Program-made: the position numbers and the translations under genes
Notes under the pieces: model-generated
Told to the model about the DNA's origin: nothing
What the model saw: only the letters and a program-made list of their open reading frames with translations
Databases searched by the model: none
Shown: positions 11,906 through 37,110 of the stretch, piece by piece
Numbering within the stretch: the stretch's first letter is position 1
Layout of the letters: each line of letters starts with the position of its first letter
From: a virus
DNA: 64,000 bases
Strand: one strand, 5' to 3'
Virus record (IMG/VR): IMGVR_UViG_3300045999_011383

Positions 11906-12006
11906 ACCAGAAGGAGACGGCTATATAGAGTGGAGAACAGATGCACCGTTAAGCATCTTTACAGCCAAGGCTAAAAAAGAAATCAAACAAAAACTAGGAG
12001 TCACCA

Positions 12007-17506: not shown

Positions 17507-17592
17507 GTTAAGATCAAAATAGTTTTTGAACCTACTACTCCCATGTCAAATCAACACTCAAGTGAGTATGTTTCCCACCAAAAAGATGAATT

Positions 17593-17949: not shown

Positions 17950-18128
17950 TGTCAATGTGTAATAAGACCCCAGGATGGGAAACTGCGCTCCCATCTTTTT
18001 TTTATTGCACACATTAATAAAAATAAATGGTATAATAAAAAAGTCTTTTGGCTGTTACCCTGTTGTATAACCACTCGCGCCTCCTCCGCGAGTTTTTTAT
18101 TTTTAAAGTCATCTGGTAGAGGTAATTT

Positions 18129-18935
18129 ATGAAAAAAAATAACTTATTAATACAGTTGATGGTTCTGTCGTTGGTGCTACAAACGGCAATACATTCTGAA
18201 ACCGGAATTACTAAAAAGGCAATTGCAGTAAATGAGTCATCTTTGATTAAAGCTCAAGCACCTGTTCCTCAAAAAACAGAAGTCCAGAATAAAGAAGATT
18301 ACTATGAACTTCGTGATGCACTAAGATCCCTTGATATCATCAAAGCCTTAATAATTTTTTCTGGATGTATTTTTACAGCCATTGTATCCATGATGGGTGA
18401 GGCTTTGGTTAAGCAAGTTATTGAGCAAATCAAAAATATTGTTATTGAAGTTGTTGGTAATCAACAGATGTTTAACAACATATCCTCTTCAGAAATTACA
18501 GAAATCAATGCAATGATGGAAAGGATTAGGTATGACTTAAAAGCAGTCAGAATATCTTTGTTTAAATTCCATCTAGACAACCATTCTATATTTTTAGAAG
18601 TAGCATCTAGTGGCAAACACTCAATGGCTAGTCGCCCGCCAATTTCTAGGCATTTTTTTGATAGTGCCATTAAACCTATGATTGATAATAAAATTTCCTA
18701 CTCTTGCTGCGGTAGTGAAGGTGAGGTTTGTTCTACTTGGTTAAGCAGTAGAGACACGGGACGTTATGCTATATATTTATTTTATTATAAAGAAAATTTC
18801 GCTGGATTTATATTAGTTGAATGGAGTAAATCTTTCTTTGAAAATTGGTTTTTTAATGAAGACATGGGAAAATGTGAACCACAATTAAAGATGCTATCTG
18901 CTATGATCAGTGAAGCAATAAAGGACAAAAATTAA
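18129..18935 (+). CDS. signal-peptide/membrane protein (268 aa)
   Basis: N-terminal LLIQLMVLSLVLQTAIHS signal and an internal TM LIIFSGCIFTAIVSMM. The C-terminal domain distantly resembles that of 38764..39441. Confidence 0.55.
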   Translation: MKKNNLLIQLMVLSLVLQTAIHSETGITKKAIAVNESSLIKAQAPVPQKTEVQNKEDYYELRDALRSLDIIKALIIFSGCIFTAIVSMMGEALVKQVIEQIKNIVIEVVGNQQMFNNISSSEITEINAMMERIRYDLKAVRISLFKFHLDNHSIFLEVASSGKHSMASRPPISRHFFDSAIKPMIDNKISYSCCGSEGEVCSTWLSSRDTGRYAIYLFYYKENFAGFILVEWSKSFFENWFFNEDMGKCEPQLKMLSAMISEAIKDKN

Positions 18936-19002
18936 ACTGTTGTAAAACCCTGGCAATGCACAATAAATCAATAGTAGAGCGAGCAACTACCAGGGTAAAT
19001 AT

Positions 19003-20139
19003 TTAATCTCTTATTTGCACAGGCATGGTTAAATATGTCATTTTTAATCCACTTAACGGAGTAAAAATAACTGGTTGCAACTGATGATTTAAGTGAATTT
19101 GAATCTCTGCGGAAGATAACTCTTTAAGTCCTTCCAAAAGATATTTAACATTAAACCCGACTTCGATATCAGTACCAGAAACTTGGGCTGGTATTGACTC
19201 TATAGCACTACCCACATCTTGAGTTTCGCAGGACAAAATTACTAGTTGATTGTCCCTATCTAAAGACAATTTGACAATATTGTTTTTCTGACTAGCTAAC
19301 ACAGAAATCCGTTCTAAGGTGCTAATAAATTGTTTTCTGTCTATTGTTACTTCTCGCTCAAATTGCCTGGGAATTAATTGATTATAAGCAGGATAATGAC
19401 CTTCTAATGTGCGACTGGTTAATCTTTGGTTTCCACGCACAAATACTACTTGTACCGGATCTATGTAAATTTCAACCTGTTCAGGAGCAGAACCCTGGCT
19501 TAACATTTTTTGCAATTCTCGTAACGCTTTAGCAGGAATTGTCACCTCTGATTCTTGATCCTCGTCTGACTCACGACTGGTTTCCACTACCGCTAATCTG
19601 TGTCCATCGGTAGAGGCAAATTCTATACTATCTCGCTTTAAGAAAAAATGCACACCAGTGAGAACCTGTTTAGTCTCATCAGAGCTAGTAGCAAATAAAG
19701 TACGTTGCAGTCCCTCGCTAAGTGCCGAAGCAGAAACCTCAATTGGTTCTACCTCGTGAACTGTTGGCAACTCAGGAAACTCATCAGCATTCATAGCACG
19801 GACTTGATAGCGACCGCTTTTAGGTTTTAAAGTGACGGTAATACCACCGCTTTCTTCTTCAGTGCTACTGATTGTAATGTCACCCTGGGGTAATTTAGAA
19901 ACAATATCTAAGAGTAGTTTAGAAGGTATGGTAATTTCACCACCCTGTAACACCTGAGCATCAAAAGTAGTACAAATGCCTAAACTTAAATCAAAGGAAG
20001 TTAATTCCACTTGATCAGTGTCGCTGTTAGCCTTTAACAAAATATTAGCAAGTACCGGATGAGTTGGGCGTGAAGGAACAGCACGACTAGCCAAAGAAAG
20101 ATTGGCGTTAAGTTCAGATTGAGAGCAAATTAATTTCAT
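19003..20139 (-). CDS. dnaN: DNA polymerase III beta sliding clamp
   Basis: 378 aa. MKLICSQSELNANLSLASRAVPSRPTHPVLANILL and the C-terminal ..PVIFTPL....YLTMPVQIR are typical DnaN throughout. Confidence 0.95.
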   Translation of the reverse strand: MKLICSQSELNANLSLASRAVPSRPTHPVLANILLKANSDTDQVELTSFDLSLGICTTFDAQVLQGGEITIPSKLLLDIVSKLPQGDITISSTEEESGGITVTLKPKSGRYQVRAMNADEFPELPTVHEVEPIEVSASALSEGLQRTLFATSSDETKQVLTGVHFFLKRDSIEFASTDGHRLAVVETSRESDEDQESEVTIPAKALRELQKMLSQGSAPEQVEIYIDPVQVVFVRGNQRLTSRTLEGHYPAYNQLIPRQFEREVTIDRKQFISTLERISVLASQKNNIVKLSLDRDNQLVILSCETQDVGSAIESIPAQVSGTDIEVGFNVKYLLEGLKELSSAEIQIHLNHQLQPVIFTPLSGLKMTYLTMPVQIRD

Positions 20140-20268
20140 GATCTGTGGGAATGTTACTCGTATTAATACTATATTTAATAATAATATTAATTGATTAGTT
20201 TGTCAATAATACTCTCATTTTATGGTATTATTTTTATAGAAATTAATAATTAAAATCAGCAAAAAACC

Positions 20269-21714
20269 ATGACCGAAAAACCAGGGGAATATACAGCCAA
20301 GTACAAGCCAACTCAATTAATTCAAGGAACTGGACAGACTGCATTGATAACAGGATGGACTATCAAAGAAGCAGTCCAAAAACATTTGAGTAACCATGAA
20401 TATGCAGTTATTGGGCAACTATACTCACCCACAAGAGGGATTAACTTAGTGGTTCGGAATCTGCTATTAAATCCTCATGTTAGGTACTTAGTAATTCTCA
20501 ATGGAACTAAGGAAGACAAAAACGCAGGTGGCTGTCAATGTTTAGCTGACTTTTTTCGTTATGGTTTCAATAAAGGTATTAGTGATATTGGTAGAAAAAC
20601 CTGGGTAATTTCTTCTTCTATTACTGGCTATATTGACATCGAGATTGATATGAATGTTTTAAAAAAATTGCGTGAGTCTGTAGAAATCAAGGAAGTACAA
20701 TCAATAGCCCAAGCTGTTGAAGCGGTCAGAGATTATGCAACTAAAAAACCCGTTGCACCTTGGGGAACACCCTTAGAATTTCCCATGAGTACAATTGAAT
20801 CAAATACCCTACCAGGACCCCTCTATGGTCACAGAATAGAGGGTAAAACCATTGCGGAAACCTGGGTAAAAATCATCCATAGAATTAAAACAACCGGGGT
20901 GATCCGACCCACTAGCCATGATGGAACGTGGCAGGAATTGATAGATTTAATGGCAATTATTACCAATGAGCCTGATGATTTTTACTTTCCTGAACCCAAC
21001 TATTTGCCAGTAGATAGAAGTTTTTTACAAGAATATATTTCTCAGATATTAGAGGACGCGCCTAGTCAAGAAGGGATAAAATACACCTATGGACAAAGGT
21101 TACGTTCCTGGTTTGGTAAAGACCAGGTTCGACAGGTAATTGAAAAGCTAACCCATGACATTAATTCCGCCAGGGCTGTAATGTCTCTGTGGGATATTAA
21201 AGAAGACAACGATGAATCTAATCCCCCCTGTTTAAATCATATTTGGGTAAGGGTAGTCAGCGGTGAACTGTCTTTAACCGCAACCTTTCGTAGTAATGAT
21301 ATGTTCTCAGCATGGCCAGCCAATGCCATGGGTTTAAGGGCTTTACAGAAATATATTTATAGTGCTTTATTGAGTTCCCATCAATCCCTCAAATTAGGTC
21401 CATTGATTACCATTAGTCAGAGCGCTCATATTTATGATGATTGTTTTGAGAATGTCAGCAAGGTAATCTCATCTCAGTATGGTAAGATTGCCAAAAACCA
21501 GGATTACTCTGATCCTGTGGGGAATTTTATTATTAGTAATCAAGAGGGTAAAGTCGTGGTTGAGCATACCACCCCTGGTTCAGGAGAGGTGGTTAATTGT
21601 TATTCAAATAAGTCCGCTTATAAGGTGTCACAAGAAATAATGAGAGATTGTCCAGGGTTGCAAAACTCCCATGCTATGTATTTGGGATGGGAGTTGTGCA
21701 AGTTAAAGTATTAA
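20269..21714 (+). CDS. thymidylate-synthase-family pyrimidine C5 transferase with about 170-aa N-terminal extension
   Basis: Catalytic-Cys motif NPPCLNHIW, then TFRSNDMFSAWPANAMG (the RS.D region) and SQSAHIYDD (the HiY motif). Substrate specificity cannot be read from the sequence. Confidence 0.75.
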   Translation: MTEKPGEYTAKYKPTQLIQGTGQTALITGWTIKEAVQKHLSNHEYAVIGQLYSPTRGINLVVRNLLLNPHVRYLVILNGTKEDKNAGGCQCLADFFRYGFNKGISDIGRKTWVISSSITGYIDIEIDMNVLKKLRESVEIKEVQSIAQAVEAVRDYATKKPVAPWGTPLEFPMSTIESNTLPGPLYGHRIEGKTIAETWVKIIHRIKTTGVIRPTSHDGTWQELIDLMAIITNEPDDFYFPEPNYLPVDRSFLQEYISQILEDAPSQEGIKYTYGQRLRSWFGKDQVRQVIEKLTHDINSARAVMSLWDIKEDNDESNPPCLNHIWVRVVSGELSLTATFRSNDMFSAWPANAMGLRALQKYIYSALLSSHQSLKLGPLITISQSAHIYDDCFENVSKVISSQYGKIAKNQDYSDPVGNFIISNQEGKVVVEHTTPGSGEVVNCYSNKSAYKVSQEIMRDCPGLQNSHAMYLGWELCKLKY

Positions 21715-21829: not shown

Positions 21830-22852
21830 CTAGGAAACCTTGATTTCAGCGATCGCTTCTTCTAAATGTTCCTGAATCACTAATCCCTCTCGCTCTAAAA
21901 TCGCTCGTTTAGCTGCATCTTGGGCAACCCTCACAGCTTGAGCCGCAGAAAAATCTTTCATCTGTTCAATAATTCTTGGCCAGTTGATAGATCCCACTTC
22001 AATTGCAGATAGTGTTTCCCTCAGTATAAATTCTAGTTCTTTTTCTCCCGGTTTGGGTACTGCAATCAGATCATCAAATCTCCTCCATAGGGCAGTATCC
22101 AAAGATTTATTCAAATTCGTAGCGGCTACCATAAGCCCAGAAGAAGGTTGATATTCATCCAAAATTTGCAAAAATGTATTTACTACTCGCTTAATTTCTC
22201 CCACTTCCTGAGAATCTTCTCGTGTCTTAGCAATTGAGTCACATTCATCTAAAAATAATAAACATGGATTTTTTGCAGCATCCTCAAATACCAGTCTTAA
22301 ATTACTGGCTGTCTCCCCTAAAAAAGACGACACCATTGCATCAAAACGTACTTTTAACAGTGGTAAACCTGTATTCCAGGCTAAACGTTCTGCTCCTAAT
22401 GTCTTTCCACACCCAGGCGGTCCATAAAGGAGAATTTTTTGCCGATAACGCAGCCCATGATGAGCTAGTCTATCTCTTGCTGCATACTCGCGCTCAATTC
22501 TTTGAAAACGCTTTTCAATTTTTTCAGGCAATACCATGTAATGACGTAGTTTATCCCTTGGTATGGTCGTTACCAAGGGAAGGTTAAAACGCTTACTGGT
22601 TGGTAATTCGCTTAAACCCTGTAAGTTTTCTCCTGTTGTTTGTGTGGCATTTGCAAGAAAGGAAACAGGTTTGATAGGGTCGGGAGATTGATCTCTGGGT
22701 TTCTTTTTAGCAATATTCTCTAACTGGTCAGCAAGGAGGGTATGCCCTTTACTGCGCTCTTCTTCTATGACCAGATATGCAAGTTTGTCAATCGCTTCTT
22801 GGTCTGAACTAGCGATCGCTCTGAAAAACCTTTTGAGAATCTCTCCCTTCAT
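21830..22852 (-). CDS. classical AAA+ ATPase
   Basis: Walker A LLYGPPGCGKT, Walker B LLFLDECDS, and second region of homology ATNLNKSLDTALWRRFD. Confidence 0.85.
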   Translation of the reverse strand: MKGEILKRFFRAIASSDQEAIDKLAYLVIEEERSKGHTLLADQLENIAKKKPRDQSPDPIKPVSFLANATQTTGENLQGLSELPTSKRFNLPLVTTIPRDKLRHYMVLPEKIEKRFQRIEREYAARDRLAHHGLRYRQKILLYGPPGCGKTLGAERLAWNTGLPLLKVRFDAMVSSFLGETASNLRLVFEDAAKNPCLLFLDECDSIAKTREDSQEVGEIKRVVNTFLQILDEYQPSSGLMVAATNLNKSLDTALWRRFDDLIAVPKPGEKELEFILRETLSAIEVGSINWPRIIEQMKDFSAAQAVRVAQDAAKRAILEREGLVIQEHLEEAIAEIKVS

Positions 22853-22968: not shown

Positions 22969-23034
22969 CTTGCAATTAACCCAGTCCCTCAAGGTCGGCT
23001 TCTTGCAATTAACCCAGTTCCCCAAGTCCGGTTT
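22969..23034. repeat. two tandem spacerless degenerate CRISPR-repeat-like 33-mers
   Basis: cttgcaattaacccagtccctcaaggtcggctt followed by cttgcaattaacccagttccccaagtccggttt. Each aligns to the 37-nt repeat at roughly 24 of 33 positions and they abut repeat 1. Confidence 0.6.
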
Positions 23035-24171
23035 GCTTCAACTATCCTCAGTCCCTAAGCCCAGTTGCAAGTGTCAAGGGGTTTATTTTCGAAACCCTTA
23101 TATTTCCTACGTCGTTTCAACTATCCTCAGTCCCTAAGCCCAGTTGCAAGTGAAGGACGTGATTCTAATGCAGCAAAGAACATCTGTTTCAACTATCCTC
23201 AGTCCCTAAGCCCAGTTGCAAGACACATTCTTTATCTTTTAAATATAGCTTATACCATCTGTAGTTTCAACTATCCTCAGTCCCTAAGCCCAGTTGCAAG
23301 AACACCTTACCACCTTTAAGGTAAGACGGCACTTTAGGTTTCAACTATCCTCAGTCCCTAAGCCCAGTTGCAAGACAGAATTGAGAGAACTTTCAAGCCA
23401 TAAGAGAGTAGCGTTTCAACTATCCTCAGTCCCTAAGCCCAGTTGCAAGATTTTCAAAAATTTAAAAATGAATCTGGACATGAAGATGTTTCAACTATCC
23501 TCAGTCCCTAAGCCCAGTTGCAAGAATGCACATTAACAAAAAAAAACCATGAAAAACCGTTTCAACTATCCTCAGTCCCTAAGCCCAGTTGCAAGAAAAC
23601 TTATCAGATACTTAATAAGGCTATAGGTTAGTTTCAACTATCCTCAGTCCCTAAGCCCAGTTGCAAGCTCCCATTTATACAGCTTACTAGCAGCGCAAAT
23701 AGTTTCAACTATCCTCAGTCCCTAAGCCCAGTTGCAAGTCAAAAATCAACAGGAATTGGCCACTACTATTGAAGGATGTTTCAACTATCCTCAGTCCCTA
23801 AGCCCAGTTGCAAGATAAAGCCGTCCGGGGAGGCATGACTAATGAGGATGGTTTCAACTATCCTCAGTCCCTAAGCCCAGTTGCAAGTTGAGACAGTTAA
23901 ACCCAAGGTACTTTAACCTAGTTTCAACTATCCTCAGTCCCTAAGCCCAGTTGCAAGAAAGTATTAAAGAAATGCTCAAACTACCGGCATGTTTCAACTA
24001 TCCTCAGTCCCTAAGCCCAGTTGCAAGTTGCTACATTTACCATACTTATGGAAACTGTCAATGTTTCAACTATCCTCAGTCCCTAAGCCCAGTTGCAAGT
24101 TACTTTGTAAGACGTTATGTAAGACGGCGATGGAGTTTCAACTATCCTCAGTCCCTAAGCCCAGTTGCAAG
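23035..24171. CRISPR. CRISPR array: 16 x 37-nt repeats, 15 spacers (33-42 nt); transcription direction unresolved
   Basis: Repeat is GTTTCAACTATCCTCAGTCCCTAAGCCCAGTTGCAAG. Starts are 23035 (one mismatch, GCTTCAAC), 23114, 23186, 23264, 23338, 23413, 23488, 23559, 23631, 23702, 23778, 23851, 23921, 23991, 24063 and 24135. All spacers are unique. Confidence 0.97.
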
Positions 24172-24514
24172 TCCCGGCTTTCAAAAGCTTTATAAGTCAA
24201 GGGTTTCAAAGGCAATTCTGGCGGACCTGCTAAAAAATCTCATTTCAGCCGCTTAAATCAGCTTGGGTCTTTAAAAGAAACTGAGCGAAACTCTTGCAAT
24301 GTCATGGTTCTGGACTTTTGGCGAATGTCCAGGGTTTTTACCCTAGCTTTGATATGCCAAAAAGATGAGATAGTTGCCAGCCATAGTTCCGGCTGGTCTT
24401 TGGGGGTTGTCGCCTTCCCCCTTACTTTTTAGGGTAAAACCCTTACAAGTCATAAGCTAACATTACATTAGCTACCCGTCCAAACTGCGGTAATTTAATA
24501 TTAACCTAGTCCTA
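24172..24514. ncRNA. ORF-free, hairpin-dense spacer between cas12-like stop and array (candidate tracrRNA/scaffold or leader)
   Basis: Stem-loops at 24312-24330, 24331-24344, 24377-24396, 24402-24421 (GGGGG/CCCCC followed by ttacttttt), 24431-24443 and 24455-24474. Confidence 0.3.
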
Positions 24515-26389
24515 TTACTTTGTCAAGCGTTTTTTCTTAAATCTTTTAGGCTTTTGATAAACCAGCCTAACATTATGGTATTTGACCTCTCCCAATTCAA
24601 AACCACCATTCTGTTTATGATTTCTAGCAGCATTGGTATCAGCTTGTTGGGCAACGTCAAATAATTTACAGTCAGGGTTTTTACAGACAAATTCATACTG
24701 CGATCGCCTTTCCCCTTTCTGTCCGCAACAATGGCATATTTGAGAGCTATAATTAGCAGGTGGTTCATGGAAGTTGCCACCTCTATTTTCTATTTTTTGC
24801 TTGGTTTTAGCTTTCAAGTCACCTAAACATCTTTGTCTCATAATCCAGTTTAAACCACGTTTAGCAGATGCACCATTGTGAGCATATCCCACACCCTCTG
24901 GTAATGCTTTTGGATCTACTTGTTTAAGTAAGTTGGTAACTTGTGTATCCTCCCAAGATATATGTTCATAAGTGCGAGATAATCTTGTGGATAACTTGTG
25001 ATTAAAGGCATTAGAGGAATTAGCCCCGCGTTCGTGTAGACGGCTGATTTTTTGTTGTAACTTAGATTCATTCTTTGTCTTGATTCTAGAGGTCTTGTTG
25101 CCTAAGCTTTTCCATTTTTTATCATTAATTAATTCAGCGTTGTCTAGACGTGATTGTAATTCCTCAATGTGAATTGAGATCCGCTCCCTAGTAAGGTTAG
25201 GAAGGAATAAAGCCCCATGATCTGTAGACACTACAGCCTGTACCCCAGGGTCAATACCCGCACTCAGATTTTTACCTTTTAAAACTGATGACTGCTTAAT
25301 TTGTTGCTCAATGAATTTCAGTTTTGACTTGATATCTTGGTACTCTTCACTGTCTTCACCAAACTCTTTTTTTACCTTGGGTAACTTATTTGTTAGTACA
25401 GACTTTTCCTCTTGCAATGGGTGAGCAACTACAATATTAATGTAGTATCCTGACTGCTGTTTGGTAATCATGTATGTCCGTGGCAAAACCTGAGAAAGAT
25501 TCAATCTTTTTACCCAGTTTTTGTCAGCAATAGTGATGGGAGTAAGTCCGGTGACAGTAACTATGTTTTTGTCAATGTCAATCCTGTTAGGCGCACATTG
25601 ATTATTAGATAAAGTTGCAATCTTGTCTACATCTTTTTTGAATTTTGGCTTTCTACTGTTTATCCTTTTAGGATCTAAAAATGCCTTCCAAGATTCCTTA
25701 AAAAATGCTAACAGCCCGCCAATATAGTGGGAAGAAACCTGCAAGTCTGGTAAATTTTGGAATGCTCTTAAAGTATTTAATCCAGTCACGTTGTCAAGTT
25801 TTTCCAAAGTAGTCAGTTCCCTACCCTCATACTTTCCACTAGGGAATGTGCGGTATTTGTGAGGGACTATTTCTATCCGTTGCCAGGGCTTATCGCCTTT
25901 AACTAATTTGTACCCCTTGACGTAAATAACGCCTTTTTTGGTATTAACTGGAATATTGATATTTTCATCTCTCTTCCAATAATTCCCGCCTGTGGCTATT
26001 TGACAGGATAATCCTTCATAAGCACTATTTCCAAGCCTTAATGGCACAGGAATAATGCCTTCCAAGCTAAATGGACTCCATCTGGTAAATATCTCAAATT
26101 CTTTCTTGCTAACTAATTCCTGTTCTTTTTTAGACAGCTTAGGCTTATCCTTGGTGGAATAGTAATCTTTAACTAATTGTTGTTGCTCAGGTTTAAGTTT
26201 TTCCAGTTTTTCAGTAGCCTTGGTTAAATCTGCACTGCGTTTAGCAGCCCAAGCATACCAATCTACGCAGTGATTGTGTAGTTGGTTGGAAAGTGCTAAA
26301 TTCCACAGCCATGTTAATTCATCTAAGTAGCGATCGCACACAGCCGCCTGTTCTGATGAGAGTTTGATTTTAATCTTAATTGTCTTCAT
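24515..26389 (-). CDS. cas12: TnpB-like type V CRISPR effector (Cas12 family), RuvC residues intact
   Basis: 624 aa. TnpB-like N-terminus IKIKLSSEQAAVCDRYLDELTWLWNLALSN. RuvC-I GIDPGVQAVVSTDHG, RuvC-II HISWEDTQVTNL, zinc finger CHCCG..x13..CKNPDC, RuvC-III QADTNAARN. Adjacent to the array. Confidence 0.85.
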   Translation of the reverse strand: MKTIKIKIKLSSEQAAVCDRYLDELTWLWNLALSNQLHNHCVDWYAWAAKRSADLTKATEKLEKLKPEQQQLVKDYYSTKDKPKLSKKEQELVSKKEFEIFTRWSPFSLEGIIPVPLRLGNSAYEGLSCQIATGGNYWKRDENINIPVNTKKGVIYVKGYKLVKGDKPWQRIEIVPHKYRTFPSGKYEGRELTTLEKLDNVTGLNTLRAFQNLPDLQVSSHYIGGLLAFFKESWKAFLDPKRINSRKPKFKKDVDKIATLSNNQCAPNRIDIDKNIVTVTGLTPITIADKNWVKRLNLSQVLPRTYMITKQQSGYYINIVVAHPLQEEKSVLTNKLPKVKKEFGEDSEEYQDIKSKLKFIEQQIKQSSVLKGKNLSAGIDPGVQAVVSTDHGALFLPNLTRERISIHIEELQSRLDNAELINDKKWKSLGNKTSRIKTKNESKLQQKISRLHERGANSSNAFNHKLSTRLSRTYEHISWEDTQVTNLLKQVDPKALPEGVGYAHNGASAKRGLNWIMRQRCLGDLKAKTKQKIENRGGNFHEPPANYSSQICHCCGQKGERRSQYEFVCKNPDCKLFDVAQQADTNAARNHKQNGGFELGEVKYHNVRLVYQKPKRFKKKRLTK

Positions 26390-27189: not shown

Positions 27190-27441
27190 TTAAATTAACT
27201 CCAGCAAAATTGTTAATGCGGACTGGATACTGTTAATAGCATCTTTGATTAATGCCCGCTTTTGGGTTGCGGGTTTGTTTGGACTAGAAACTAATAACTC
27301 ATCATTAGCTATTAGTTTCATGAATTTGGAAATGTTGGGGTCTTCACCCCACAGGCAGCCAAACTCCAAAGCTTTATTCTCTAGCTTGGCTTTGTCTTCC
27401 ATTGAGATAGAGAGCGTGATGCTCTCTTGTTTTCTACTCAT
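27190..27441 (-). CDS. ribbon-helix-helix (CopG/Arc-like) small regulator
   Basis: ESITLSISMEDKAKLENKALEFG has a beta-strand-then-helix pattern. Start overlaps the upstream ORF stop (ATGA). Confidence 0.5.
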   Translation of the reverse strand: MSRKQESITLSISMEDKAKLENKALEFGCLWGEDPNISKFMKLIANDELLVSSPNKPATQKRALIKDAINSIQSALTILLELI

Positions 27442-27947: not shown

Positions 27948-28108
27948 GATACAATACCTTTAAACGATGTTTTACTTAGAGGCTTGGGCTTGCTCCCCTT
28001 GCCTCTATATTTATATCATTACACAATATTTTATCCTTGTCAATAGCAAAGTGTCCGTATTTTAAATATTTTGTACTGAACTTTTGAAGTTGTAAATTGT
28101 ACAACATA

Positions 28109-28207
28109 AAAAGAAGTAAACGACGTAACCGACATCAACTAAAACAGCAACTAAGAAAATTAGATGCGATCGCACTTAAACAAATCCATAGCAGCTTGGG
28201 GGGATAA
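28109..28207 (+). pseudogene. N-terminal fragment homologous to ORF 39453..39776
   Basis: Translates as KRSKRRNRHQLKQQLRKLDAIALKQIHSSLGG*, compared with KRQARRHRHLLKKQLRELDAIAKKQINNNYNL.. in the 107-aa protein. It has no ATG and lacks the Cys-rich remainder. Confidence 0.4.
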
Positions 28208-28413
28208 ACCCGACATATCTAAGCTTTTAAGTAGATAGCCCAACGGGAAATACTGCTTTCTTGTTCTGATAAACCCACCAAAAAACAAAGTCCTTTAATT
28301 AAAGAAGCGATCGCGCTTATTCAAAAAGGATTGTCAATTTTAATAGAATTAATTTAGTTTTTAAAGCGCTCTTGACAGGGCGTTTTTTGTTGTTTAAAAA
28401 CTTAATTTAATTG

Positions 28414-28443
28414 TTGATTAATTGTTAATCAATGTGTTATACT
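28414..28443 (+). promoter_or_regulatory. candidate promoter of the csf operon (TTGATT-18-TGtTATACT, extended -10)
   Basis: ttgattaattgttaatcaatgtgttatact, 38 nt upstream of the GTG at 28481. Confidence 0.4.
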
Positions 28444-28480
28444 AAATCAAGATTAAATTACTTTAGTTTGGGAAAGTAAA

Positions 28481-28999
28481 GTGACAACCAATCATTACGG
28501 AATGCCACAGACACGAGACAAGTGTTATGGCGTGGCTGCTTGTTTAAGTTATTGGGTTTTTAAATGCCGTGACAGGAAACGTAGTCCAGCCATGGGAACT
28601 AAAACCTGGACATATTTGGAATCTTCTATCAAGAATTGTGCAGAAATATCCACAAATTTAGAAGATTATCTACAAAATCTTTGTGATAAATTGATATCGC
28701 AATTAAGACCTGTAGAGCTAACCAAAATTATTCAACCAACTCAGAGAATACTGAGAATTAATGAAGATGCAACTGAAATCAAGGAACTACCAATAGATCG
28801 AAGTTTGGTTTTTATGGGGTGGCTTGACTTGCTTGCCGATATTGAACCCCACGGATTTAGTGAGTGGGACGTAATGGAATTGTTAAGAACAAAAACAGGA
28901 GTTATTCAAGTAATTTGTCGTCTGCGATTTGAAGAAGATAGAAGTGTGGGGCTTGATGAACCAGAAGAATTTATTGAGGTAGAGGTGACAAATGTTTGA
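28481..28999 (+). CDS. first gene of csf operon; possible Cas11-like small subunit (assignment by position and size only)
   Basis: 172 aa, GTG start. Its stop overlaps the csf2 ATG. No diagnostic motif. Confidence 0.4.
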   Translation: MTTNHYGMPQTRDKCYGVAACLSYWVFKCRDRKRSPAMGTKTWTYLESSIKNCAEISTNLEDYLQNLCDKLISQLRPVELTKIIQPTQRILRINEDATEIKELPIDRSLVFMGWLDLLADIEPHGFSEWDVMELLRTKTGVIQVICRLRFEEDRSVGLDEPEEFIEVEVTNV

Positions 29000-30125
29000 T
29001 AATTATAATATTTTTGACAGAGAGAAATTAACCCTGCATTGCTTAATCACGCTACAGACACCATTGAGCCATATAGGCGAAGTGTCTGGCAATGTTAGCA
29101 ATCTGAAAACTACTAAGTTATTGGACTTTGAAGGTAATCCTAGAAGTGTTTTTGTCTATTCTGGTAATGCAATCAGAAACGGTATTTTGCGCCGGGTAGG
29201 AGTGGCAGCAGCACTCACGGAATTAGGAATTAAGGTAAATCCAGATACTCACCATACAATGTTTGCTGGCGGGCGAATTGATGGGGGGACAGCTTCGGAT
29301 ATGGAACTGGATAAAAAGATCCGGGTCTTTATGCCTTGGCTATCAGTATTGGGAACAGCCAAACCCATAGGTGTTTTTGGGACTAAAGAAGCCCAGATGG
29401 TAGCTGGTAGAAGTAATATTGGCAGTGGTTATTTAGTCTGCTATGAGTCAGCAGAATACGTTTACAACCAACTCCCAGCAGTTTTACCACCGGAAATACA
29501 GCCAACTATGGCCTTATTAATTGAAGCTAAAACCAGACTTTCTTCCGACCCTTTTGTATCCACAAAATCAGAAGACTTAACTAACTGGAATCAAGCAAAA
29601 TCAGAATGTTTGCCACTGATCAAAAAAGCAATGAAAACATGGACTGAATACTTAACAATTGATCAGACAACTCGCAGAGATAGCACTTTAGATCCCAACT
29701 TACTCAAATTTCTACCATCAGAAGTACAAGCACAATTAACAGGTGATGGTAAAACTAAAGAAAAAACTAAATCAGATCAGATGATTGCGTCTGACAGGCT
29801 GATCATGCCCGGTGCTAAACTTTATTCTCGATGGGATCTAACTTGTACTCAAATAGAAGAGGGATGGATATTTGATACTTTACTCAAGTTTTCAGAATCA
29901 CCTTATATTGGTGGTAAAGGCAATCGTGGCAATGGCAGGGTTCATCTTGATTTCTGGTTTCAGTCTGACCATGAACGGGGGTTATTGTGTTCTCTGAAAG
30001 ATGGAATTATGGGAGATAGGTTTCTTAATTCCCATCAAAAATATCGGGAATATATCAATCAGTATCAGCAGTTTTTAAGTGAAGCAAAAACATCCAAGGA
30101 ATTAAGGAAGTTGTTAGGTGAATAA
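28992..30125 (+). CDS. csf2: Csf2-like Cas7-family RAMP (type IV backbone subunit)
   Basis: LITLQTPLSHIGEVSG....VFVYSGNAIRNGILRR is the RAMP N-terminal motif. Also MFAGGRIDGG and WLSVLGTA, with C-terminal G-rich loop YIGGKGNRGNGRVHLDF. Confidence 0.75.
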   Translation: MFDNYNIFDREKLTLHCLITLQTPLSHIGEVSGNVSNLKTTKLLDFEGNPRSVFVYSGNAIRNGILRRVGVAAALTELGIKVNPDTHHTMFAGGRIDGGTASDMELDKKIRVFMPWLSVLGTAKPIGVFGTKEAQMVAGRSNIGSGYLVCYESAEYVYNQLPAVLPPEIQPTMALLIEAKTRLSSDPFVSTKSEDLTNWNQAKSECLPLIKKAMKTWTEYLTIDQTTRRDSTLDPNLLKFLPSEVQAQLTGDGKTKEKTKSDQMIASDRLIMPGAKLYSRWDLTCTQIEEGWIFDTLLKFSESPYIGGKGNRGNGRVHLDFWFQSDHERGLLCSLKDGIMGDRFLNSHQKYREYINQYQQFLSEAKTSKELRKLLGE

Positions 30126-30804
30126 TTTAAAAGTCACTGCATATTTGTCTACACCGATTGGTGTCTATGACAATTGGAGTCCTTCTTTGGAGGGACTTCT
30201 TACCTATAGATTACTAGAAGAAAATAATCTATTGTCTCCCAATCCCACCGCAGAGCAAGTAGCAAAGGTTCAGAATTTTTTAGTAAATGAATTACCGCTT
30301 AAACAGAATACAATAATGAATGATAAGTATTTCTGTGTAAGTTCACCTTGCTATGTGGTTCAAGGTGAGGCTACTGATAAATATCGGAAAAGATGGGACA
30401 ATCACGAAAATAATCTGAACTGGGGAAAAAGAAAGCCTAAATTCTTGACGGGTGAAGGTGCAGAAAAGTCCTATGATTTACCGCTATACACTCGTTTAAC
30501 AAATAGTATTAGTTGGTTTGTAACAGGCGACAGAACCAAGATTGACGCTCTATTGTCACCTGTTACCCATATTCAGAAAAAACGAAGTTATGGCAATGGT
30601 GAAGTTAAGCAATGGCAACTAGAAATAGTTTATGACGACTATCATTTGTGGCGAGATAATAAACTAATGCGTCCTATGCCCGTGAAGTTAATATCACAAA
30701 AAATAGATAATCCTCAAATGATTTGGGGATGGAAAAGCCCGTCTTGGTTAGCAGAAAATAAAGAACTTTGTTATATGCCAAAGGACAATGTGATTTATGC
30801 TTAG
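30118..30804 (+). CDS. csf3: Csf3-like Cas5-family RAMP
   Basis: KVTAYLSTPIGVYDNWSPSLEGLLTY at the N-terminus and G-rich loop KKRSYGNGEVKQW. GTG start overlaps the csf2 stop. Confidence 0.6.
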   Translation: MNNLKVTAYLSTPIGVYDNWSPSLEGLLTYRLLEENNLLSPNPTAEQVAKVQNFLVNELPLKQNTIMNDKYFCVSSPCYVVQGEATDKYRKRWDNHENNLNWGKRKPKFLTGEGAEKSYDLPLYTRLTNSISWFVTGDRTKIDALLSPVTHIQKKRSYGNGEVKQWQLEIVYDDYHLWRDNKLMRPMPVKLISQKIDNPQMIWGWKSPSWLAENKELCYMPKDNVIYA

Positions 30805-31543
30805 TAATGGCTCTGGGGTTCAATACCCTTGGTTGAAAAAGAAAATTACTAAAGCTATTAATTTCATTAATCAGTGGCTAGAACAATGCAACTATCAGGT
30901 TTATGCAAGTATTTCCGGTGGTAAAGATAGCTTAGTAATGTCTCATTTGATCAGGAAAGTTTACCCTGATTGCCCGTTAGTTTGGGTAAATCAAGGGCTG
31001 TTAGCAGAATGGGATGATTGTATTGAATTATTGGAATACTTGAAAACTCAAAACTGGAACATTATTGAGCTTTGTCCAGTTCGTGATTTATGGCATTTAT
31101 ACATAGATCACGGAGTTCCGTTAGAGGGTACGATGGATACAAAAGTAGATAAATTAATCAACCAAAAATTGATTTATGATCCATTGCAAGAATACCAAGA
31201 AATCAACAATATCAAAGGGTACGCATGGGGAATAAGGAAGCAAGAAAGCAAAAACAGAGCATTTTATCTTAACAAGTACGGTGAAGTTCATGAACTAAAA
31301 AATGGGTTAATTTGTTGCTCGCCTATTGCTCACTGGACTACAGAAGAAATATGGCAGTACATAGATATGTACTCACTCAAATACCCAGCAATTTATGACA
31401 TTAACAAAATGACAGTCAGGAATGGTTGCCCGATTGGAACTACAGGAGCAAACTGGGGTAGATTAGCTGAATTAAAAAGATATTACCCCAATATTTACAA
31501 CCAATTTGTTGATAAATTCCCACAAATATCGAACTATGTCTAA
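30797..31543 (+). CDS. cysH: PAPS-reductase / CysH-like PP-loop enzyme
   Basis: PP-loop ASISGGKDSLVM, then WGIRKQESKNR and PIAHWTTEEIWQYI. Embedded inside the csf operon with overlapping junctions. Confidence 0.85.
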   Translation: MLSNGSGVQYPWLKKKITKAINFINQWLEQCNYQVYASISGGKDSLVMSHLIRKVYPDCPLVWVNQGLLAEWDDCIELLEYLKTQNWNIIELCPVRDLWHLYIDHGVPLEGTMDTKVDKLINQKLIYDPLQEYQEINNIKGYAWGIRKQESKNRAFYLNKYGEVHELKNGLICCSPIAHWTTEEIWQYIDMYSLKYPAIYDINKMTVRNGCPIGTTGANWGRLAELKRYYPNIYNQFVDKFPQISNYV

Positions 31544-32294
31544 TTGCTACCTTTGCGCTAAACCAGCATCAAATCCACTAGAATTATCCAATACTTTCAC
31601 CATGCACTCATCGGCTAAGTGTCCAGACTCTAAGCTGCTGTGCGATCGCTGCTATTCTACAATTTCTGGTAATCAAAAGCAGTTATGGTATTGGAATGAA
31701 GGTAAAAATAAGTGGTCAAAACTGTGGGGACGATCTTTGTCCAGGGTGTACCAAGGCGATACTTTAATAGCACCAATAATTAAAGGCACTCACACTGAAG
31801 GCAAAGATACTTTCAGTGTGGTTAGAAACTTATTGACGCGGGTAGAAATCAGGGAATATTTATTAAATCCTCCTGAGCCACCGTTCACTATCGCTATAGC
31901 AGAATCAGGACAAAAACACATTATCCCATGGGCATTAGAAGCGCGTAGCTGTAACTTTTTTCCAATTCAATTTGAGTTAGACACGGTTTATATTGACAAC
32001 AGATTCAAGGAATCTTTGCAAGTATATGAACAACTAATGGGATTAGGGTTTAGTAAGTCTGAAATTGATTCAGGAAACTACAGAAGCGATAGATTGATGA
32101 AAGTGTTTGATAAATTTTGGGAACTTGAGGAATCCATAAAAGCCATTAGAGGGACTAGATTAATGGAATTAATAAATTACGTCGCTCAACTACAATCAAG
32201 TGCCGTCGTGGCGGAAATAAAGCCAATTCCTGTAATTCCTGTTTCTCCCACGAGTCCAGACAAATCAAATCCAGTTCAGTTATCGTTGTTTTAG
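31536..32294 (+). CDS. csf1: Csf1-like zinc-finger large-subunit protein
   Basis: Tracked ORF trimmed to the ATG at 31536 (ATGTCTAA overlap with the cysH-like stop). N-terminal CYLC..x21..C..x6..CDRC cysteine cluster; about 250 aa. Confidence 0.55.
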   Translation: MSNCYLCAKPASNPLELSNTFTMHSSAKCPDSKLLCDRCYSTISGNQKQLWYWNEGKNKWSKLWGRSLSRVYQGDTLIAPIIKGTHTEGKDTFSVVRNLLTRVEIREYLLNPPEPPFTIAIAESGQKHIIPWALEARSCNFFPIQFELDTVYIDNRFKESLQVYEQLMGLGFSKSEIDSGNYRSDRLMKVFDKFWELEESIKAIRGTRLMELINYVAQLQSSAVVAEIKPIPVIPVSPTSPDKSNPVQLSLF

Positions 32295-32310: not shown

Positions 32311-32402
32311 TCCGATCCGTTAAAAATAACGCTGGAGTCTTTAAAATCAACGCTGGAGTCAGCAAAGATAACGCTGGAGTCCTTAAAATTAACATTGGAG
32401 TC
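32311..32402. repeat. iteron cluster: 4 x AACGCTGGAGTC-type 12-mers at exact 21-bp spacing
   Basis: Cores at 32328, 32349, 32370 and 32391 (the last reads aacattggagtc). The 29-nt lead-in tccgatccgttaaaaataacgctggagtc matches 50459-50487 at 27 of 29 positions. Confidence 0.75.
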
Positions 32403-32558
32403 GTTAATTTTAAGGTTTCATCTATATTATTAAACAATCTTAATTAACAATCTTAATTAAGAGTCTCTAGTTTAAGTACAAATAAAAATGCTCACCAAGG
32501 TGCATGGTGAGCATAATATGTTGAAACCTACTCAATGCAAGTATAGCAAATTTAACCC

Positions 32559-33548
32559 TTAAATTGCATTTTTAATAGCCTGACAAATTCGTTGCATAAG
32601 CAATGGGGGAATGGAATTTCCAATTCCCCTAACATCAACCGCAGACTTACCCGACCATTTATAAGAATCAGGAAAAGATTGTATTCGTGCTAACGCATGG
32701 GTGCTTAAACTCTTGCAAGTATCACCACAGACAATATCAATTATTTTAGAGCGATTGCCATTGTGTCCATCGTCACCTAACACTGCACGAATAGTCCAAC
32801 ATGGTTCTAATGGTGTTTTGACCTTGGGTTTGCCACGGTATCCAATTCGTTCTACTAGTACCATTGAGTCGCCATAGGGTGCTACAGCGTCCTTCTGTCG
32901 GGGTGTTATCTGTGATTCAGTGAAGTGGGGAATCAGATCACAAATCGCTTCATGCCACCCAATCCAGTTTTTCCTAAATAGATTAATTTGCCCATTAATT
33001 GCTTTTCCATACTCAGGAATAATGCAAGGAAAGTCAAACCCATCAGATACGGCAATACTTAAAAACCGTTTTCGGGATTGAGGTACACCGTAATCAGCAG
33101 CATTGTAAATACCTTTGCCAATCCGATATCCTTTGTCTATTAAAAATGCTTCAAAGTCCAGATAAACCTTTGATTTAGAATAACCGGGGACGTTTTCTAA
33201 AACTATAAATTCAGGTTCATATAAGCTGTAAAATTCATGGGTTGCACTCAATATATTAGCACGAACGCTATCTTTATTGGTAGCCACATTAACCACTGAA
33301 AAGTCTTGACAAGGTGGTGAAGTTTGGTGAACTAAAATATCGCCATTCCGGTCTTTTTTGGTGGGAATATTTAAATTCCTGAAGTTAACTTTGGCAATAT
33401 CTTCTATTAATACATCCCCACAATTAGTTTGATAAAGTTCTGCTATTCTAGGATCAAACTCAATAGCAGATATTGGTTTTAATAAAGCAGACATTGCACC
33501 TATAGTTGAGCCACCGCATCCTGAAAAATGAGTAGAGTAATAAATCAT
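32559..33548 (-). CDS. dcm: DNA cytosine-5 methyltransferase
   Basis: Motif I FSGCGG, IV SPPCQDFS, VI LENVPG, VIII QSRKRF and X GNSIPP, in canonical order. Confidence 0.9.
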   Translation of the reverse strand: MIYYSTHFSGCGGSTIGAMSALLKPISAIEFDPRIAELYQTNCGDVLIEDIAKVNFRNLNIPTKKDRNGDILVHQTSPPCQDFSVVNVATNKDSVRANILSATHEFYSLYEPEFIVLENVPGYSKSKVYLDFEAFLIDKGYRIGKGIYNAADYGVPQSRKRFLSIAVSDGFDFPCIIPEYGKAINGQINLFRKNWIGWHEAICDLIPHFTESQITPRQKDAVAPYGDSMVLVERIGYRGKPKVKTPLEPCWTIRAVLGDDGHNGNRSKIIDIVCGDTCKSLSTHALARIQSFPDSYKWSGKSAVDVRGIGNSIPPLLMQRICQAIKNAI

Positions 33549-34176: not shown

Positions 34177-35340
34177 TTAGCACATACTTAGTTGGGTTTC
34201 ATTGTTTGCAAGTGAAGCGCAAATATCGTACATCTCAGCCCATACGTAATCATCTTTTGCAATTGACGACAAAGGCTGTCCTGCGTATTTTGCTTGCATA
34301 GATATTTGAAAATATCTAGTTAACATTTTTTTGATCAAACTTATCTTGGTTTTCTCGCTTACTTGCAATCTGTAGTCCCCTGTTTCAGTTTTTTCTACAA
34401 AAACTCTAAAACCAGAAATTATCGGGAAAACCAAAGATTGCTGAGTTATCACACAGGTAAGTATTTCATGGTTAGGCAACTTGGTATATTTCCTAGCGTC
34501 GTTTCCACTTTTTGTAAACCTTGTTCCTGTAGCACTAGAATGATGCTGTTCTTCTAGCCTTTTGAATATTTTAGACTGAATATCTATAGCGTCGTGAACT
34601 AACGAAAAAAGTTTTTTTGGTACTAAGTCTCGACGTATAGAATTAGCGGCGTGTATTGAAAGCTTTGGATGCTTCTTTTTGCTGGTATTGGACGGAGAAT
34701 AACTTGGATCTAGTGCCAAAATAAGACTGCAAATCCTGGCAATTGTACAGCACCCATCAACATTTGTTGTCTGCACTCCAAATTGTCCTTCGTGATAAAT
34801 AATTCTGTACTTTTCAAGCTGCGGCTTCATCCAGTCATAGTCACCGCTATAATTTGCTAAACTCATTTTTGAGACGGCTTTACTGGTATTTAATGCGATC
34901 GCCTTTTCTTTTAATTCAATTTCATCAAAACCTGAATAGATTATGATGTTTACAAAAACTTGAGAAATATCTATCTCTTTAAAATTAGCAGCCACGCAAA
35001 AAGCTAATAGCCGATGACCACCATCTAACAATCCATCGGAATCTTTAAACGTCAATCTAATCAAACTTGCAGTAATTTTTGAGCAATCAGCAGCAAGATG
35101 AAGTGGTGAACTAATAACCGAAACACCCTTTTTTAAGGACTCAATTATTGACTCGGTAACAGAGTTTTTTGTCGGTCTTCTTACGTTGGCAGTTAGCGGG
35201 ATTTTCCATAAAAGATGAGATTCGCTTTTACCGTTAGCTTCAACTAAATCCTTAAGAGTAGTTGATACATGATACTCTTTTCCCTGTTGAACTGGAAATT
35301 CATTTAACGACCGGATGTTTAAACTAATAGCGTGTGCCAT
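34177..35340 (-). CDS. DGQHR/DndB-like (ParB-Srx fold) protein, variant motif DGGHR (tentative)
   Basis: GLLDGGHRLLAF followed by ..ALNTSKAV resembles the DGQHR-domain core. Confidence 0.35.
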   Translation of the reverse strand: MAHAISLNIRSLNEFPVQQGKEYHVSTTLKDLVEANGKSESHLLWKIPLTANVRRPTKNSVTESIIESLKKGVSVISSPLHLAADCSKITASLIRLTFKDSDGLLDGGHRLLAFCVAANFKEIDISQVFVNIIIYSGFDEIELKEKAIALNTSKAVSKMSLANYSGDYDWMKPQLEKYRIIYHEGQFGVQTTNVDGCCTIARICSLILALDPSYSPSNTSKKKHPKLSIHAANSIRRDLVPKKLFSLVHDAIDIQSKIFKRLEEQHHSSATGTRFTKSGNDARKYTKLPNHEILTCVITQQSLVFPIISGFRVFVEKTETGDYRLQVSEKTKISLIKKMLTRYFQISMQAKYAGQPLSSIAKDDYVWAEMYDICASLANNETQLSMC

Positions 35341-36255: not shown

Positions 36256-37110
36256 ATGATTAATCAAGTAATTCATGGTGATTGTTTTGAAGTTTTGAAA
36301 ACTATTCCTGATGGTTCTATTGACGCTGTAATCACAGATCCGCCTTACATGACAACTGATTTAAACTTTGATAAAACAGGCTTTGATGTTGACTTATTCT
36401 TAAAATTATTATTACCAAAACTTAAAAGTGATGGACAATTAGCTGCATTTGGGAGTATTGAATTACTTGCTAAGTTTAGCGGTATTTATCCTATTAGATG
36501 GTCAGGAATGTGGTTAAAACCGAGAGGAGTGATGAGAACTCATACAGCCAAGAAACCTATGAGCAAAAGCGAACCTTACTGTATATTTGCTCACCCAAAA
36601 CATAAAGTATCAAACCTTGTTTATAACAAAATATTATTGCCAGGAGAGCCTTATGAAAAAAAACAAAAAAATACTGGCTATATTAGAGACGGCAAAAATC
36701 AAATAGATAGAGCAAATACTTCTGCATGGACTAAGGACGGGTATATCTCAAAAAACCTGGGTACAAGACAACAAACAGATGTTATTGAATCTCCGTTCAA
36801 AGGCTGCATGAAACATCATGAACGAACCATTCACCCCACACAAAAGCCTGTAGCACTGATATCTACATTGGTTCAGTGGATAACCAACCCCGGCGATACA
36901 GTCCTTGACCCTTTTGCTGGTAGTGGTACAACAGCACTAGCCTGTAAAGAACTCAACAGAAACTATATCTGCATTGAGAAGGAACGGGAATATATTGACA
37001 TTATTCATCAACGCCTAAACACACCCATAGCTGAAAGGGGATTAACTGTAGAGGAACAGGTAGAGATTGAGAAAACTAAGTCACCTTATCAACAGTTGTC
37101 ATTGTTTTAG
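36256..37110 (+). CDS. DNA N6-adenine/N4-cytosine methyltransferase (DPPY, beta class)
   Basis: Motif IV AVITDPPYMTT at the N-terminus and motif I LDPFAGSGTT near the C-terminus. Confidence 0.85.
   Translation: MINQVIHGDCFEVLKTIPDGSIDAVITDPPYMTTDLNFDKTGFDVDLFLKLLLPKLKSDGQLAAFGSIELLAKFSGIYPIRWSGMWLKPRGVMRTHTAKKPMSKSEPYCIFAHPKHKVSNLVYNKILLPGEPYEKKQKNTGYIRDGKNQIDRANTSAWTKDGYISKNLGTRQQTDVIESPFKGCMKHHERTIHPTQKPVALISTLVQWITNPGDTVLDPFAGSGTTALACKELNRNYICIEKEREYIDIIHQRLNTPIAERGLTVEEQVEIEKTKSPYQQLSLF

Follow-up and report, generated by a model that had tools for sequence, protein, structure and literature searches.

The IMG/VR virus record IMGVR_UViG_3300045999_011383, a stretch of 64,000 nucleotides referred to here in its entirety as the window, holds a type IV-B csf operon in a cyanophage beside a type V-U2 module, and both of these system types are already known. 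The operon has no CRISPR array of its own. The sole nearby array, 4.3 kb away, is assigned to the effector gene c2c8 and a region resembling a trans-activating CRISPR RNA (tracrRNA). In the most likely reading, built on sequence comparison, the window carries a phage IV-B operon, the array is that of the V-U2 module, and the Csf lineage loads CRISPR RNAs (crRNAs) supplied in trans. An earlier reading of the DNA, made from its letters alone (the sequence-only reading), had recognized the operon and suggested that the array could be cognate to it. That suggestion is not supported, as the comparative evidence contradicts it, which falls short of a functional exclusion.

The RNA partner of IV-B complexes and the role of their invariant CysH-like partner have been long-standing questions since the subtype was defined. 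The cyanophage family described here provides a natural comparison set, in which Csf-CysH operons occur with cas6 and no array, without cas6 beside a type V array, or with neither. This set is suited to testing the guide source, whether scavenged host crRNA, a shared phage array or non-CRISPR RNA. Moreover, the phages of bloom-forming Nostocales appear to stack RNA-guided systems, IV-B together with one or two type V modules, aimed at each other's effector genes.

Profile comparisons identify the operon as a complete and otherwise ordinary type IV-B effector operon. The gene order proposed by the sequence-only reading (an open reading frame (ORF) of 172 codons, csf2, csf3, cysH-like, csf1) is confirmed by the ORF map and by profiles (Table 1), and the IV-B-like subtype call is borne out by matches to Csf1, Csf2, Csf3, Cas11 and cysH-like profiles. 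Pfam and NCBIfam matches of the Csf proteins are sub-threshold but specific; the PADLOC type IV profiles are decisive. For example, the 377-aa protein matches PADLOC Csf2_0_IV (9e-35) and TIGR03115 (4.5e-7, under the curated cut-off), and a profile of 16 Csf2 sequences searched against PDB sequences finds the IV-B Csf2 of Mycobacterium (7JHY) best, at 5e-4, with the type IV-A Csf2 8RC2 next. Foldseek comparison of its AlphaFold model places type IV-A3 Csf2 chains at the top (2.4e-8), followed by Csm3 chains and 7JHY; the confidence of this model is modest (predicted local distance difference test (pLDDT) 61) and the template-modelling scores are low, although the E-values consistently point to Csf2 and Csm3. 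The 228-aa protein matches PADLOC Csf3_0_IV (2.5e-40), TIGR03116 (2.7e-9, aligned over its full length) and, by a precomputed match, PF27782 Csf3. Profiles, and for Csf2 also Foldseek, thus agree with the assignment of the 377-aa and 228-aa proteins to repeat-associated mysterious proteins (Cas7 and Cas5, respectively). The 252-aa protein matches PADLOC Csf1_0_IV (5e-21) and TIGR03114 (4.4e-8) and has an N-terminal CxxC...CxxC motif. Its start is ATG 31536, not the TTG at 31506 chosen by the ORF lister, and gene callers on identical contigs also give 252 aa.

The first gene is the least certain member of the operon. Its 172-aa product matches three PADLOC typeIV_Cas11 profiles (E = 2.5e-6, 1.2e-4 and 5.7e-3), and its homologue in L029 (L-numbers denote related loci fetched with 10 kb on each side) matches the same profile at 3e-5. 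Neither Pfam nor NCBIfam yields a match to the protein, a profile search of PDB sequences returns none, and Foldseek finds no significant match to the model in the PDB. The model is mostly helical (pLDDT 71.5), and the gene lies directly 5' of csf2. These profiles, with their moderate E-values, together with operon position and predicted helical content, suggest a Cas11-like small subunit. GTG 28481 is most likely its true start, because the residues ahead of Met8 are conserved and homologues have ATG at the same position. No DinG/RecD helicase, Cas10-HD, cas6/csf5 or adaptation gene is found among the named ORFs at 19-38 kb of the window by Pfam, NCBIfam or PADLOC.

The sequence-only reading regarded the cysH-like gene as embedded in the operon. 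Its position is correctly described but is not special, and an embedded cysH is already known. The cysH-like gene is the subtype-defining accessory gene of IV-B, with a 'nearly invariant' association (PMC7038947, PMC8175902), and the usual IV-B order is csf1, cas11, csf2, csf3, cysH, as in the Fuxivirus locus, where CysH is gene 1, Csf3 gene 2, Csf2 gene 3 and Csf1 gene 5 (PMC10848311). Rotating it by one gene gives the order of the window and accounts for the embedded look of cysH. Its product has a 3'-phosphoadenosine-5'-phosphosulfate reductase domain (PF01507, 6e-18) and an SGGKDS PP-loop. The SxGKDS motif is invariant across relatives, whereas the C-terminal cysteine of 'RNGCPIG' shows no conservation among them. 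An intact PP-loop without a conserved C-terminal cysteine is the pattern given for the IV-B 'CasCysH' (PMC8175902).

All four junctions between the five genes overlap, as the sequence-only reading held, and each overlap of start and stop codons spans 8 nt: ATGTTTGA, GTGAATAA, ATGCTTAG and ATGTCTAA (also read as ACAAATGTTTGA, TTAGGTGAATAA, ATTTATGCTTAG and AACTATGTCTAA). Because start and stop codons overlap, translational coupling of the genes is implied. Stoichiometric co-translation, which had been deduced from the same overlaps, does not follow, and the subunits of known Csf complexes are not equimolar. The operon appears to be transcribed from a single promoter. A consensus scan recovers the candidate extended -10 promoter noted earlier, with 9/12 matches and the TG present; on its own this match is weak, because the region contains 38 promoter-like sites against a chance expectation of ~29. 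However, the extended -10 element and a 37-nt leader are kept in the four closest relatives, L003, L005 and L006 among them, and the sequence further upstream is unrelated in each. The promoter is therefore plausible, and a conserved leader abutting unrelated sequence matches what is expected of a promoter bordering a mobile cassette.

Table 1. Features of the csf operon, the adjoining V-U2 module and their borders in the window.
Feature	Position	Strand	Basis
csf operon, five genes (cas11-like, csf2, csf3, cysH-like, csf1)	28481-32294	+	ORF map
cas11-like, putative small subunit, 172 aa, GTG start	28481..28999	+	PADLOC typeIV_Cas11 profiles
csf2, Cas7 backbone subunit, 377 aa	28992..30125	+	PADLOC, TIGR03115, 7JHY, Foldseek
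csf3, Cas5, 228 aa, GTG start	30118..30804	+	PADLOC Csf3_0_IV, TIGR03116, PF27782
cysH-like, PP-loop enzyme, 248 aa	30797..31543	+	PF01507
csf1, Cas8-like large subunit, 252 aa	31536..32294	+	PADLOC Csf1_0_IV, TIGR03114
Type V-U2 C2c8/Cas12-like effector, 624 aa, outside the IV-B operon	24515..26389	-	NF038192, PADLOC Cas12u2
Structured tracrRNA-like region between c2c8 and array (predicted)	24172..24514, conserved core ~24342-24497	-	Conserved base pairs
CRISPR array, 16 repeats of 37 nt, minus-strand reading CTTGCAACTGGGCTTAGGGACTGAGGATAGTTGAAAC	23035..24171	-	Repeat detection
Second repeat family (CTTGCAATTAACCCAGT...), two degenerate copies without spacers, far end of the array	22969..23034	+	
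Candidate extended -10 promoter, TTGATT, 18 nt, TG-n-TATACT	28414..28443	+	Consensus scan, 9/12 matches, TG present
Terminator-like hairpin and T run, upstream of the operon promoter	28363..28386	+	Consensus scan; 10-bp stem, 4 G-C pairs, T-rich tail
Four 21-bp-phased iterons, core AACGYTGGAGTC, 3' border of the operon	32328..32402	+	7 matches in the window against 0.32 expected
Strong hairpin terminator in the gap between csf1 and the convergent Dcm methylase gene	32488..32514	-	10-bp stem, 5 G-C pairs, T run

The array reported by the sequence-only reading, about 4 kb from the operon, is present as described: its repeat is 37 nt long and on the minus strand terminates in ...AGTTGAAAC (the end of the transcribed strand being GTTGAAAC). 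Between this array and the csf operon sits the gene c2c8, which that reading left unmentioned. Its product matches NF038192 V_cas_c2c8 (4.3e-55; 187.6 bits, with a curated cut-off of 350) and PADLOC Cas12u2 (2.9e-56), and its RuvC residues D380, E480 and D584 are invariant, as are the zinc-ribbon cysteines. The region between c2c8 and the array is predicted to encode a tracrRNA for type V-U2. Its fold keeps 25 base pairs across relatives, and compensatory changes occur at 7 of these; homologous regions are present in L016, L018, L019, L021, L023 and L024. Directly 3' of an invariant hairpin, CCAGCCGGAACTATGGCTGG, comes a stretch that differs from locus to locus and is in each case the reverse complement of the local repeat. 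This anti-repeat spans almost the whole repeat in L024 (score 42, with a shuffle maximum of 23) and 24 nt in L023, where it scores 29. The window's copy covers 11/12 nt with a score of 17, which is not significant alone (shuffle mean 13.6, maximum 22), and it is accepted because its position is homologous to that of the strong anti-repeats of L023 and L024. Rfam at the gathering threshold and a tRNA scan return no matches in the window, so the tracrRNA-like RNA lies outside any curated family.

Several properties tie the array to c2c8 rather than to csf. It begins 344 bp past the c2c8 stop codon in the window and 290-365 bp past it in relatives, always in the same orientation, and the order c2c8, tracrRNA-like region, array holds in every examined relative with downstream DNA (L003-5, L009, L016-19 and L021-26). 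Five distinct repeat sequences occur among the loci, with the common ends CTTGCA...TGAAAC, and repeat and anti-repeat vary together between clades. On the grounds of this fixed spacing and orientation and of the covariation of repeat and anti-repeat, the array is assigned to the V-U2 module as the third part of a self-contained unit, a separate mobile cassette in the same accessory region. The succession of effector, tracrRNA and array is a layout known from type V-K (cas12k).

One spacer of the array, at 23151-23185, matches the 3' end of a second TnpB-like gene in related phages over 33/35 nt (targets at L004 19511-19545, L016 15324-15358 and L006 13631-13660). This match suggests that the array is used in phage-phage conflict, targeting the RNA-guided nuclease gene of a rival. 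It also hints at a putative activity of C2c8 as an RNA-guided nuclease with crRNAs of the array. The second TnpB-like protein is 29% identical to C2c8. In L004 and L016, the second repeat family forms a 28-copy array that stands back to back with the first and is accompanied by the convergent second TnpB-like gene (in L004, at 17117-19079 and 19479-20756). The degenerate copies at the far end of the window's array were considered as its decayed end, but this was rejected, as they are remnants of the second repeat family. L006 has the second TnpB-like gene and a two-repeat remnant in place of the c2c8 module.

The relatives of the operon are numerous. A Csf2 protein search retrieves 13 IMG/VR loci at 63-95% identity and hundreds of metagenomic proteins, several of them binned with metagenome-assembled genomes of Dolichospermum or Sphaerospermopsis, and an exhaustive Csf2 profile search collects 445 representatives that grade into canonical Csf2. 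The csf operon is conserved in >30 loci with Csf2 identities of 61-100%. No match is found by megablast of positions 20-40 kb of the window against plasmid and phage collections, nor by tblastn of Csf2 against isolate phages. Csf2 identity is at least 77% in the crown clade, where the window and at least 10 relatives carry the csf operon and a type V array module on one contig. The distance between the two varies (0.9, 2.3, 4.4, 6 or 11 kb), and the module lies downstream of csf on the same strand in relatives, whereas in the window it is upstream and divergent. Eight loci (L013, L014, L027, L029, L031, L033, L035 and L037) have a csf operon with neither array nor c2c8 within 10 kb. Conversely, the cyanophages CL131 (with an array) and Cr-LKS4 (without one) have V-U2-type genes and no csf2. 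The csf operon and the V-U2 module are thus separable in both directions, since each occurs without the other.

The operons themselves have been rearranged. Two CysH-like subfamilies, 24-29% identical, are distinguished by SGGKDS in the window and SWGKDS at L005 11851-12366 and L021 2530-3246, and operons with Csf2 proteins as similar as 86-95% identity have exchanged them, a sign of module swapping within the operon. L021 has an extra 230-aa gene between cysH and csf1, an interruption between csf2 and csf3, and an additional tracr and array without an effector gene. In L014 (1399-8620), cap and accessory genes are unusually multiplied: a single csf2 is followed in tandem by three paralogues of csf3 and a pair each of cysH-like and csf1 genes, and fragments of cas11 and csf2 are also present.

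The evidence for guides supplied in trans comes from sister operons that encode their own Cas6. In L029 the order is cas11, csf2, csf3, cas6, cysH, csf1, and the inserted gene (11854-12402) encodes a genuine Cas6 (PF09559, 7e-44; PADLOC Cas6, 1e-45). The gene occupies the same place between csf3 and cysH in L033 (10001-10588), L035 (9786-10349) and L040 (4121-4750), and the order is permuted in L037 (cas6 at 10001-10594). A protein search finds dozens of such Cas6, 45-71% identical, inside csf operons on metagenomic phage contigs; a pattern method detects no close relatives of the phage Cas6 in IMG/VR or GTDB. The nearest cellular Cas6, 44% identical, belongs to a cyanobacterial I-B/MYXAN locus whose repeat is an ordinary hairpin followed by an 8-nt handle. 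Within 10 kb on either side, no array accompanies any Cas6-bearing locus. In a neighbour-joining tree of Csf2, Cas6-bearing lineages are basal to or interleaved with Cas6-less ones, and the window clade is a Cas6-less crown group. Because of this placement, cas6 is probably ancestral and was probably lost more than once, including in the window clade. A cas6 remnant between csf3 and cysH was sought in the window and in L027 and rejected by tblastn with five phage Cas6 queries, which detect no Cas6 in the window. Cas6 in IV-B loci has been recorded before, as 'rare exceptions: only 12 instances' (PMC7038947), so Cas6-bearing IV-B is not a new category.

The simplest reading of this pattern is that CRISPR transcripts provided in trans, most plausibly by the host, are processed and loaded by the phage Csf lineage, given that basal and sister operons carry their own cas6 but no array. 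The four Csf/Cas11 proteins would form a filament of the Cascade or Csm type on a small RNA, and the CysH-like PP-loop enzyme may be an accessory activity recruited to whatever the Csf complex binds. The guides would be CRISPR-derived RNAs acting in trans, chiefly host pre-crRNAs. Once loaded, host RNAs could be retargeted or sequestered, in counter-defence or in competition between mobile elements. The window lineage, having lost cas6, would need a Cas6 from the host, or else other RNAs. Hypotheses of crRNA scavenging and crRNA sponging by IV-B have already been published (PMC8175902, PMC7038947). The use of Cas6-cut crRNAs, which the sequence-only reading proposed, thus gains support for the lineage through the cas6 genes of sister operons, but not by way of the array 4.3 kb away.

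Two other guide sources have to be weighed against trans supply. If the phage array fed the Csf complex, the cutting of pre-crRNA from 23035-24171 would fall to a Cas6 of the host or to RNase III acting on a duplex with the tracrRNA, and products with a GUUGAAAC-type 5' handle would be loaded on Csf3/Csf2, IV-B and C2c8 sharing one array. The form of the repeats speaks for this model: the transcribed repeat ends as a class 1 repeat does, and those of L023 and L024 in particular form a short hairpin followed by ACTGAAAC or ATTGAAAC, an 8-nt ...UGAAAC handle resembling that of Cas6 substrates. The sister operons with Cas6 indicate that the lineage has handled such products, and nearly all contigs of the crown clade, despite rearrangements, have csf accompanied by a type V array module. 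An independent neighbourhood of IV-B, Cas12b3 and a mini-array on an Actinomyces plasmid points the same way, as far as Extended Data Fig. 7 of its source depicts it (PMC12669027). However, array spacing, orientation and repeat follow c2c8 and the tracrRNA, not csf; the distance between csf and array ranges from 0.9 to 11 kb with varying orientation; csf operons, including all that bear Cas6, occur without an array within 10 kb; and the window has neither cas6 nor a remnant of it. Nor does the repeat family appear in a host class 1 locus: exact matching of its 21-nt core (GGGACTGAGGATAGTTGAAAC) against one genome each of 185,579 GTDB species gives 0 matches, a search that diverged host repeats would escape, and in JGI metagenomes the core occurs on two contigs only, both from phages of the same family with c2c8 next to the array. 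The crown-clade co-residence could reflect functional linkage instead of shared ancestry, but it is confounded by common descent and is not distinguishable from it on the loci fetched. Feeding of Csf by the phage array is therefore quite unlikely on balance, actual use of this particular array by the Csf complex is hardly more than a slim prospect, and a single array shared by IV-B and V-U2, with crRNAs matured via the tracrRNA or a host Cas6 also loaded onto Csf, is improbable to much the same degree. If it were true, IV-B would gain a guide supply and IV-B systems of mobile elements might generally partner array-bearing type V modules, the phages providing a second independent case after the Actinomyces region.

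Alternatively, Csf may use no CRISPR RNA and assemble on heterogeneous or specific non-CRISPR RNA, with Csf and CysH modifying RNA or DNA, or regulating, on behalf of the phage; cas6 in sister operons would then be a secondary acquisition. The purified Mycobacterium IV-B complex did bind heterogeneous non-CRISPR RNA (PMC7937560), the window operon lacks both cas6 and an array of its own, and L013, L014, L027 and L031 have neither array nor cas6 within 10 kb. CysH, with its invariant PP-loop, is also the most constant partner. On the other hand, at least five separate sister lineages encode Cas6, in each case within the operon, and they are basal or interleaved in the Csf2 tree. This distribution is hard to explain unless CRISPR-repeat RNA is a substrate. 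Furthermore, Csf3 (Cas5) and Csf1 are retained, and their counterparts in class 1 complexes cap a defined crRNA handle. Assembly on non-CRISPR RNA is thus an unlikely account, and loading of trans-supplied crRNA is favored over both alternatives. Besides the repeat form, the Actinomyces neighbourhood and the crown-clade co-residence considered above, some features of the analysis weigh against the favored reading. The absence of arrays near cas6 covers 10 kb on each side, the Csf2 tree was built quickly by neighbour joining and has no support values, the profile E-values behind the Cas11 assignment are moderate, and host crRNA as the RNA bound by the complex is a proposal drawn from gene content.

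The wider context of the operon is that of a phage genome. Genes of the window include those for DnaB, a DnaD-like loader, DnaN, thymidylate synthase, methyltransferases and KilA-N, and relatives carry tape-measure and capsid genes. The gene content and its relatives identify the phage as one of a Nostocales cyanophage lineage (Dolichospermum/Aphanizomenon-type). Around the operon lie defence or counter-defence genes for a Dcm-type C5 methylase, an AIPR-like protein, an N6/N4 methylase and a ParB-methyltransferase fusion (32559-33548, 34177-35340, 36256-37110 and 5237-6571, respectively), a density that fits an accessory island of the phage genome. A 340-aa AAA+ ATPase encoded at 21830-22852 on the minus strand matches PADLOC IetA of the IetAS defence system (2.5e-79), with no IetS-like protease gene evident alongside; its neighbour is a thymidylate-synthase/pterin-binding fusion protein (20269-21714).

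The borders of the operon hold further observations. A gene of 83 aa (27190-27441, minus strand) accompanies the csf operon in the closest relatives at differing positions, and a decayed partial copy of it, with 49% identity across the C-terminal half, sits immediately upstream of the promoter of the operon (28100-28350, plus strand). The iteron cluster after csf1 recurs behind csf1 in L003/L004 (13351-13404), travelling with the 3' end of the csf cassette. The other three iterons of the window are at 50476-50529, inside the gene for the DnaD-like loader just upstream of dnaB, and this second cluster looks like a lambda-style origin inside an initiator gene.

Among known systems, the IV-B locus of Mycobacterium sp. 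JS623 (7JHY) shares with the window operon Csf1, Cas11, Csf2, Csf3, a cysH-like gene and residence on a mobile element. The window operon likewise has no helicase, nuclease, adaptation genes or cas6, and its Csf2 profile matches 7JHY. The two differ in their carriers, a cyanophage here and an actinobacterial plasmid there, and in gene arrangement, csf1 having moved to the 3' end in the window, with cysH between csf3 and csf1 and 8-nt overlaps throughout. The window proteins are also divergent, with all NCBIfam scores far under curated cut-offs, and an array owned by a different system lies 4.3 kb from the operon. The Cas6-bearing IV-B loci recorded previously (PMC7038947) resemble L029, L033, L035, L037 and L040 in joining Csf1, Csf2, Csf3, Cas11 and CysH with Cas6, unlike the window, which lacks cas6. 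In the phage lineage, cas6 belongs to the I-B/MYXAN kind (PF09559), its place is between csf3 and cysH, and no array occurs within 10 kb of it.

Virus-borne IV-B is itself already known, in one case with a mini-array (PMC10848311). That atypical IV-B operon, from Fuxivirus, a virus of Bathyarchaeia, resembles the window in encoding CysH-like, Csf3, Csf2 and Csf1 proteins with an array inside the locus or close by; its proposed function is counter-defence or conflict between mobile elements (PMC10848311). In contrast to the window, where 16 repeats belong to an adjacent Cas12-like gene, it comes from an archaeal virus and has a two-repeat mini-array within the IV-B locus. The region of an Actinomyces conjugative plasmid illustrated in the 2025 classification (PMC12669027, Extended Data Fig. 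7) is similar in that IV-B adjoins an array-bearing type V module on one element, and the text accompanying that figure does not claim a functional link. As presented there, it differs in type V subtype, host phylum and mobile-element type, and the RuvC of its Cas12b3 is inactivated, whereas C2c8 of the window keeps the D-E-D triad.

V-U2 in a Nostocales cyanophage has also been described, in vB_AphaS-CL131 (PMC6293099). As in the window, a TnpB-like effector is followed by an array there; the CL131 effector is, however, only ~29-33% identical and shorter (466 aa), CL131 has no csf2, and its V-U2 locus was reported to lack a tracrRNA (PMC6293099). The C2c8 effector of the window has no transposon association. 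Its module is like both CL131 V-U2 and type V-K in its architecture, in which an effector, a structured RNA and an array with repeats ending in ...TTGAAAC follow one another.

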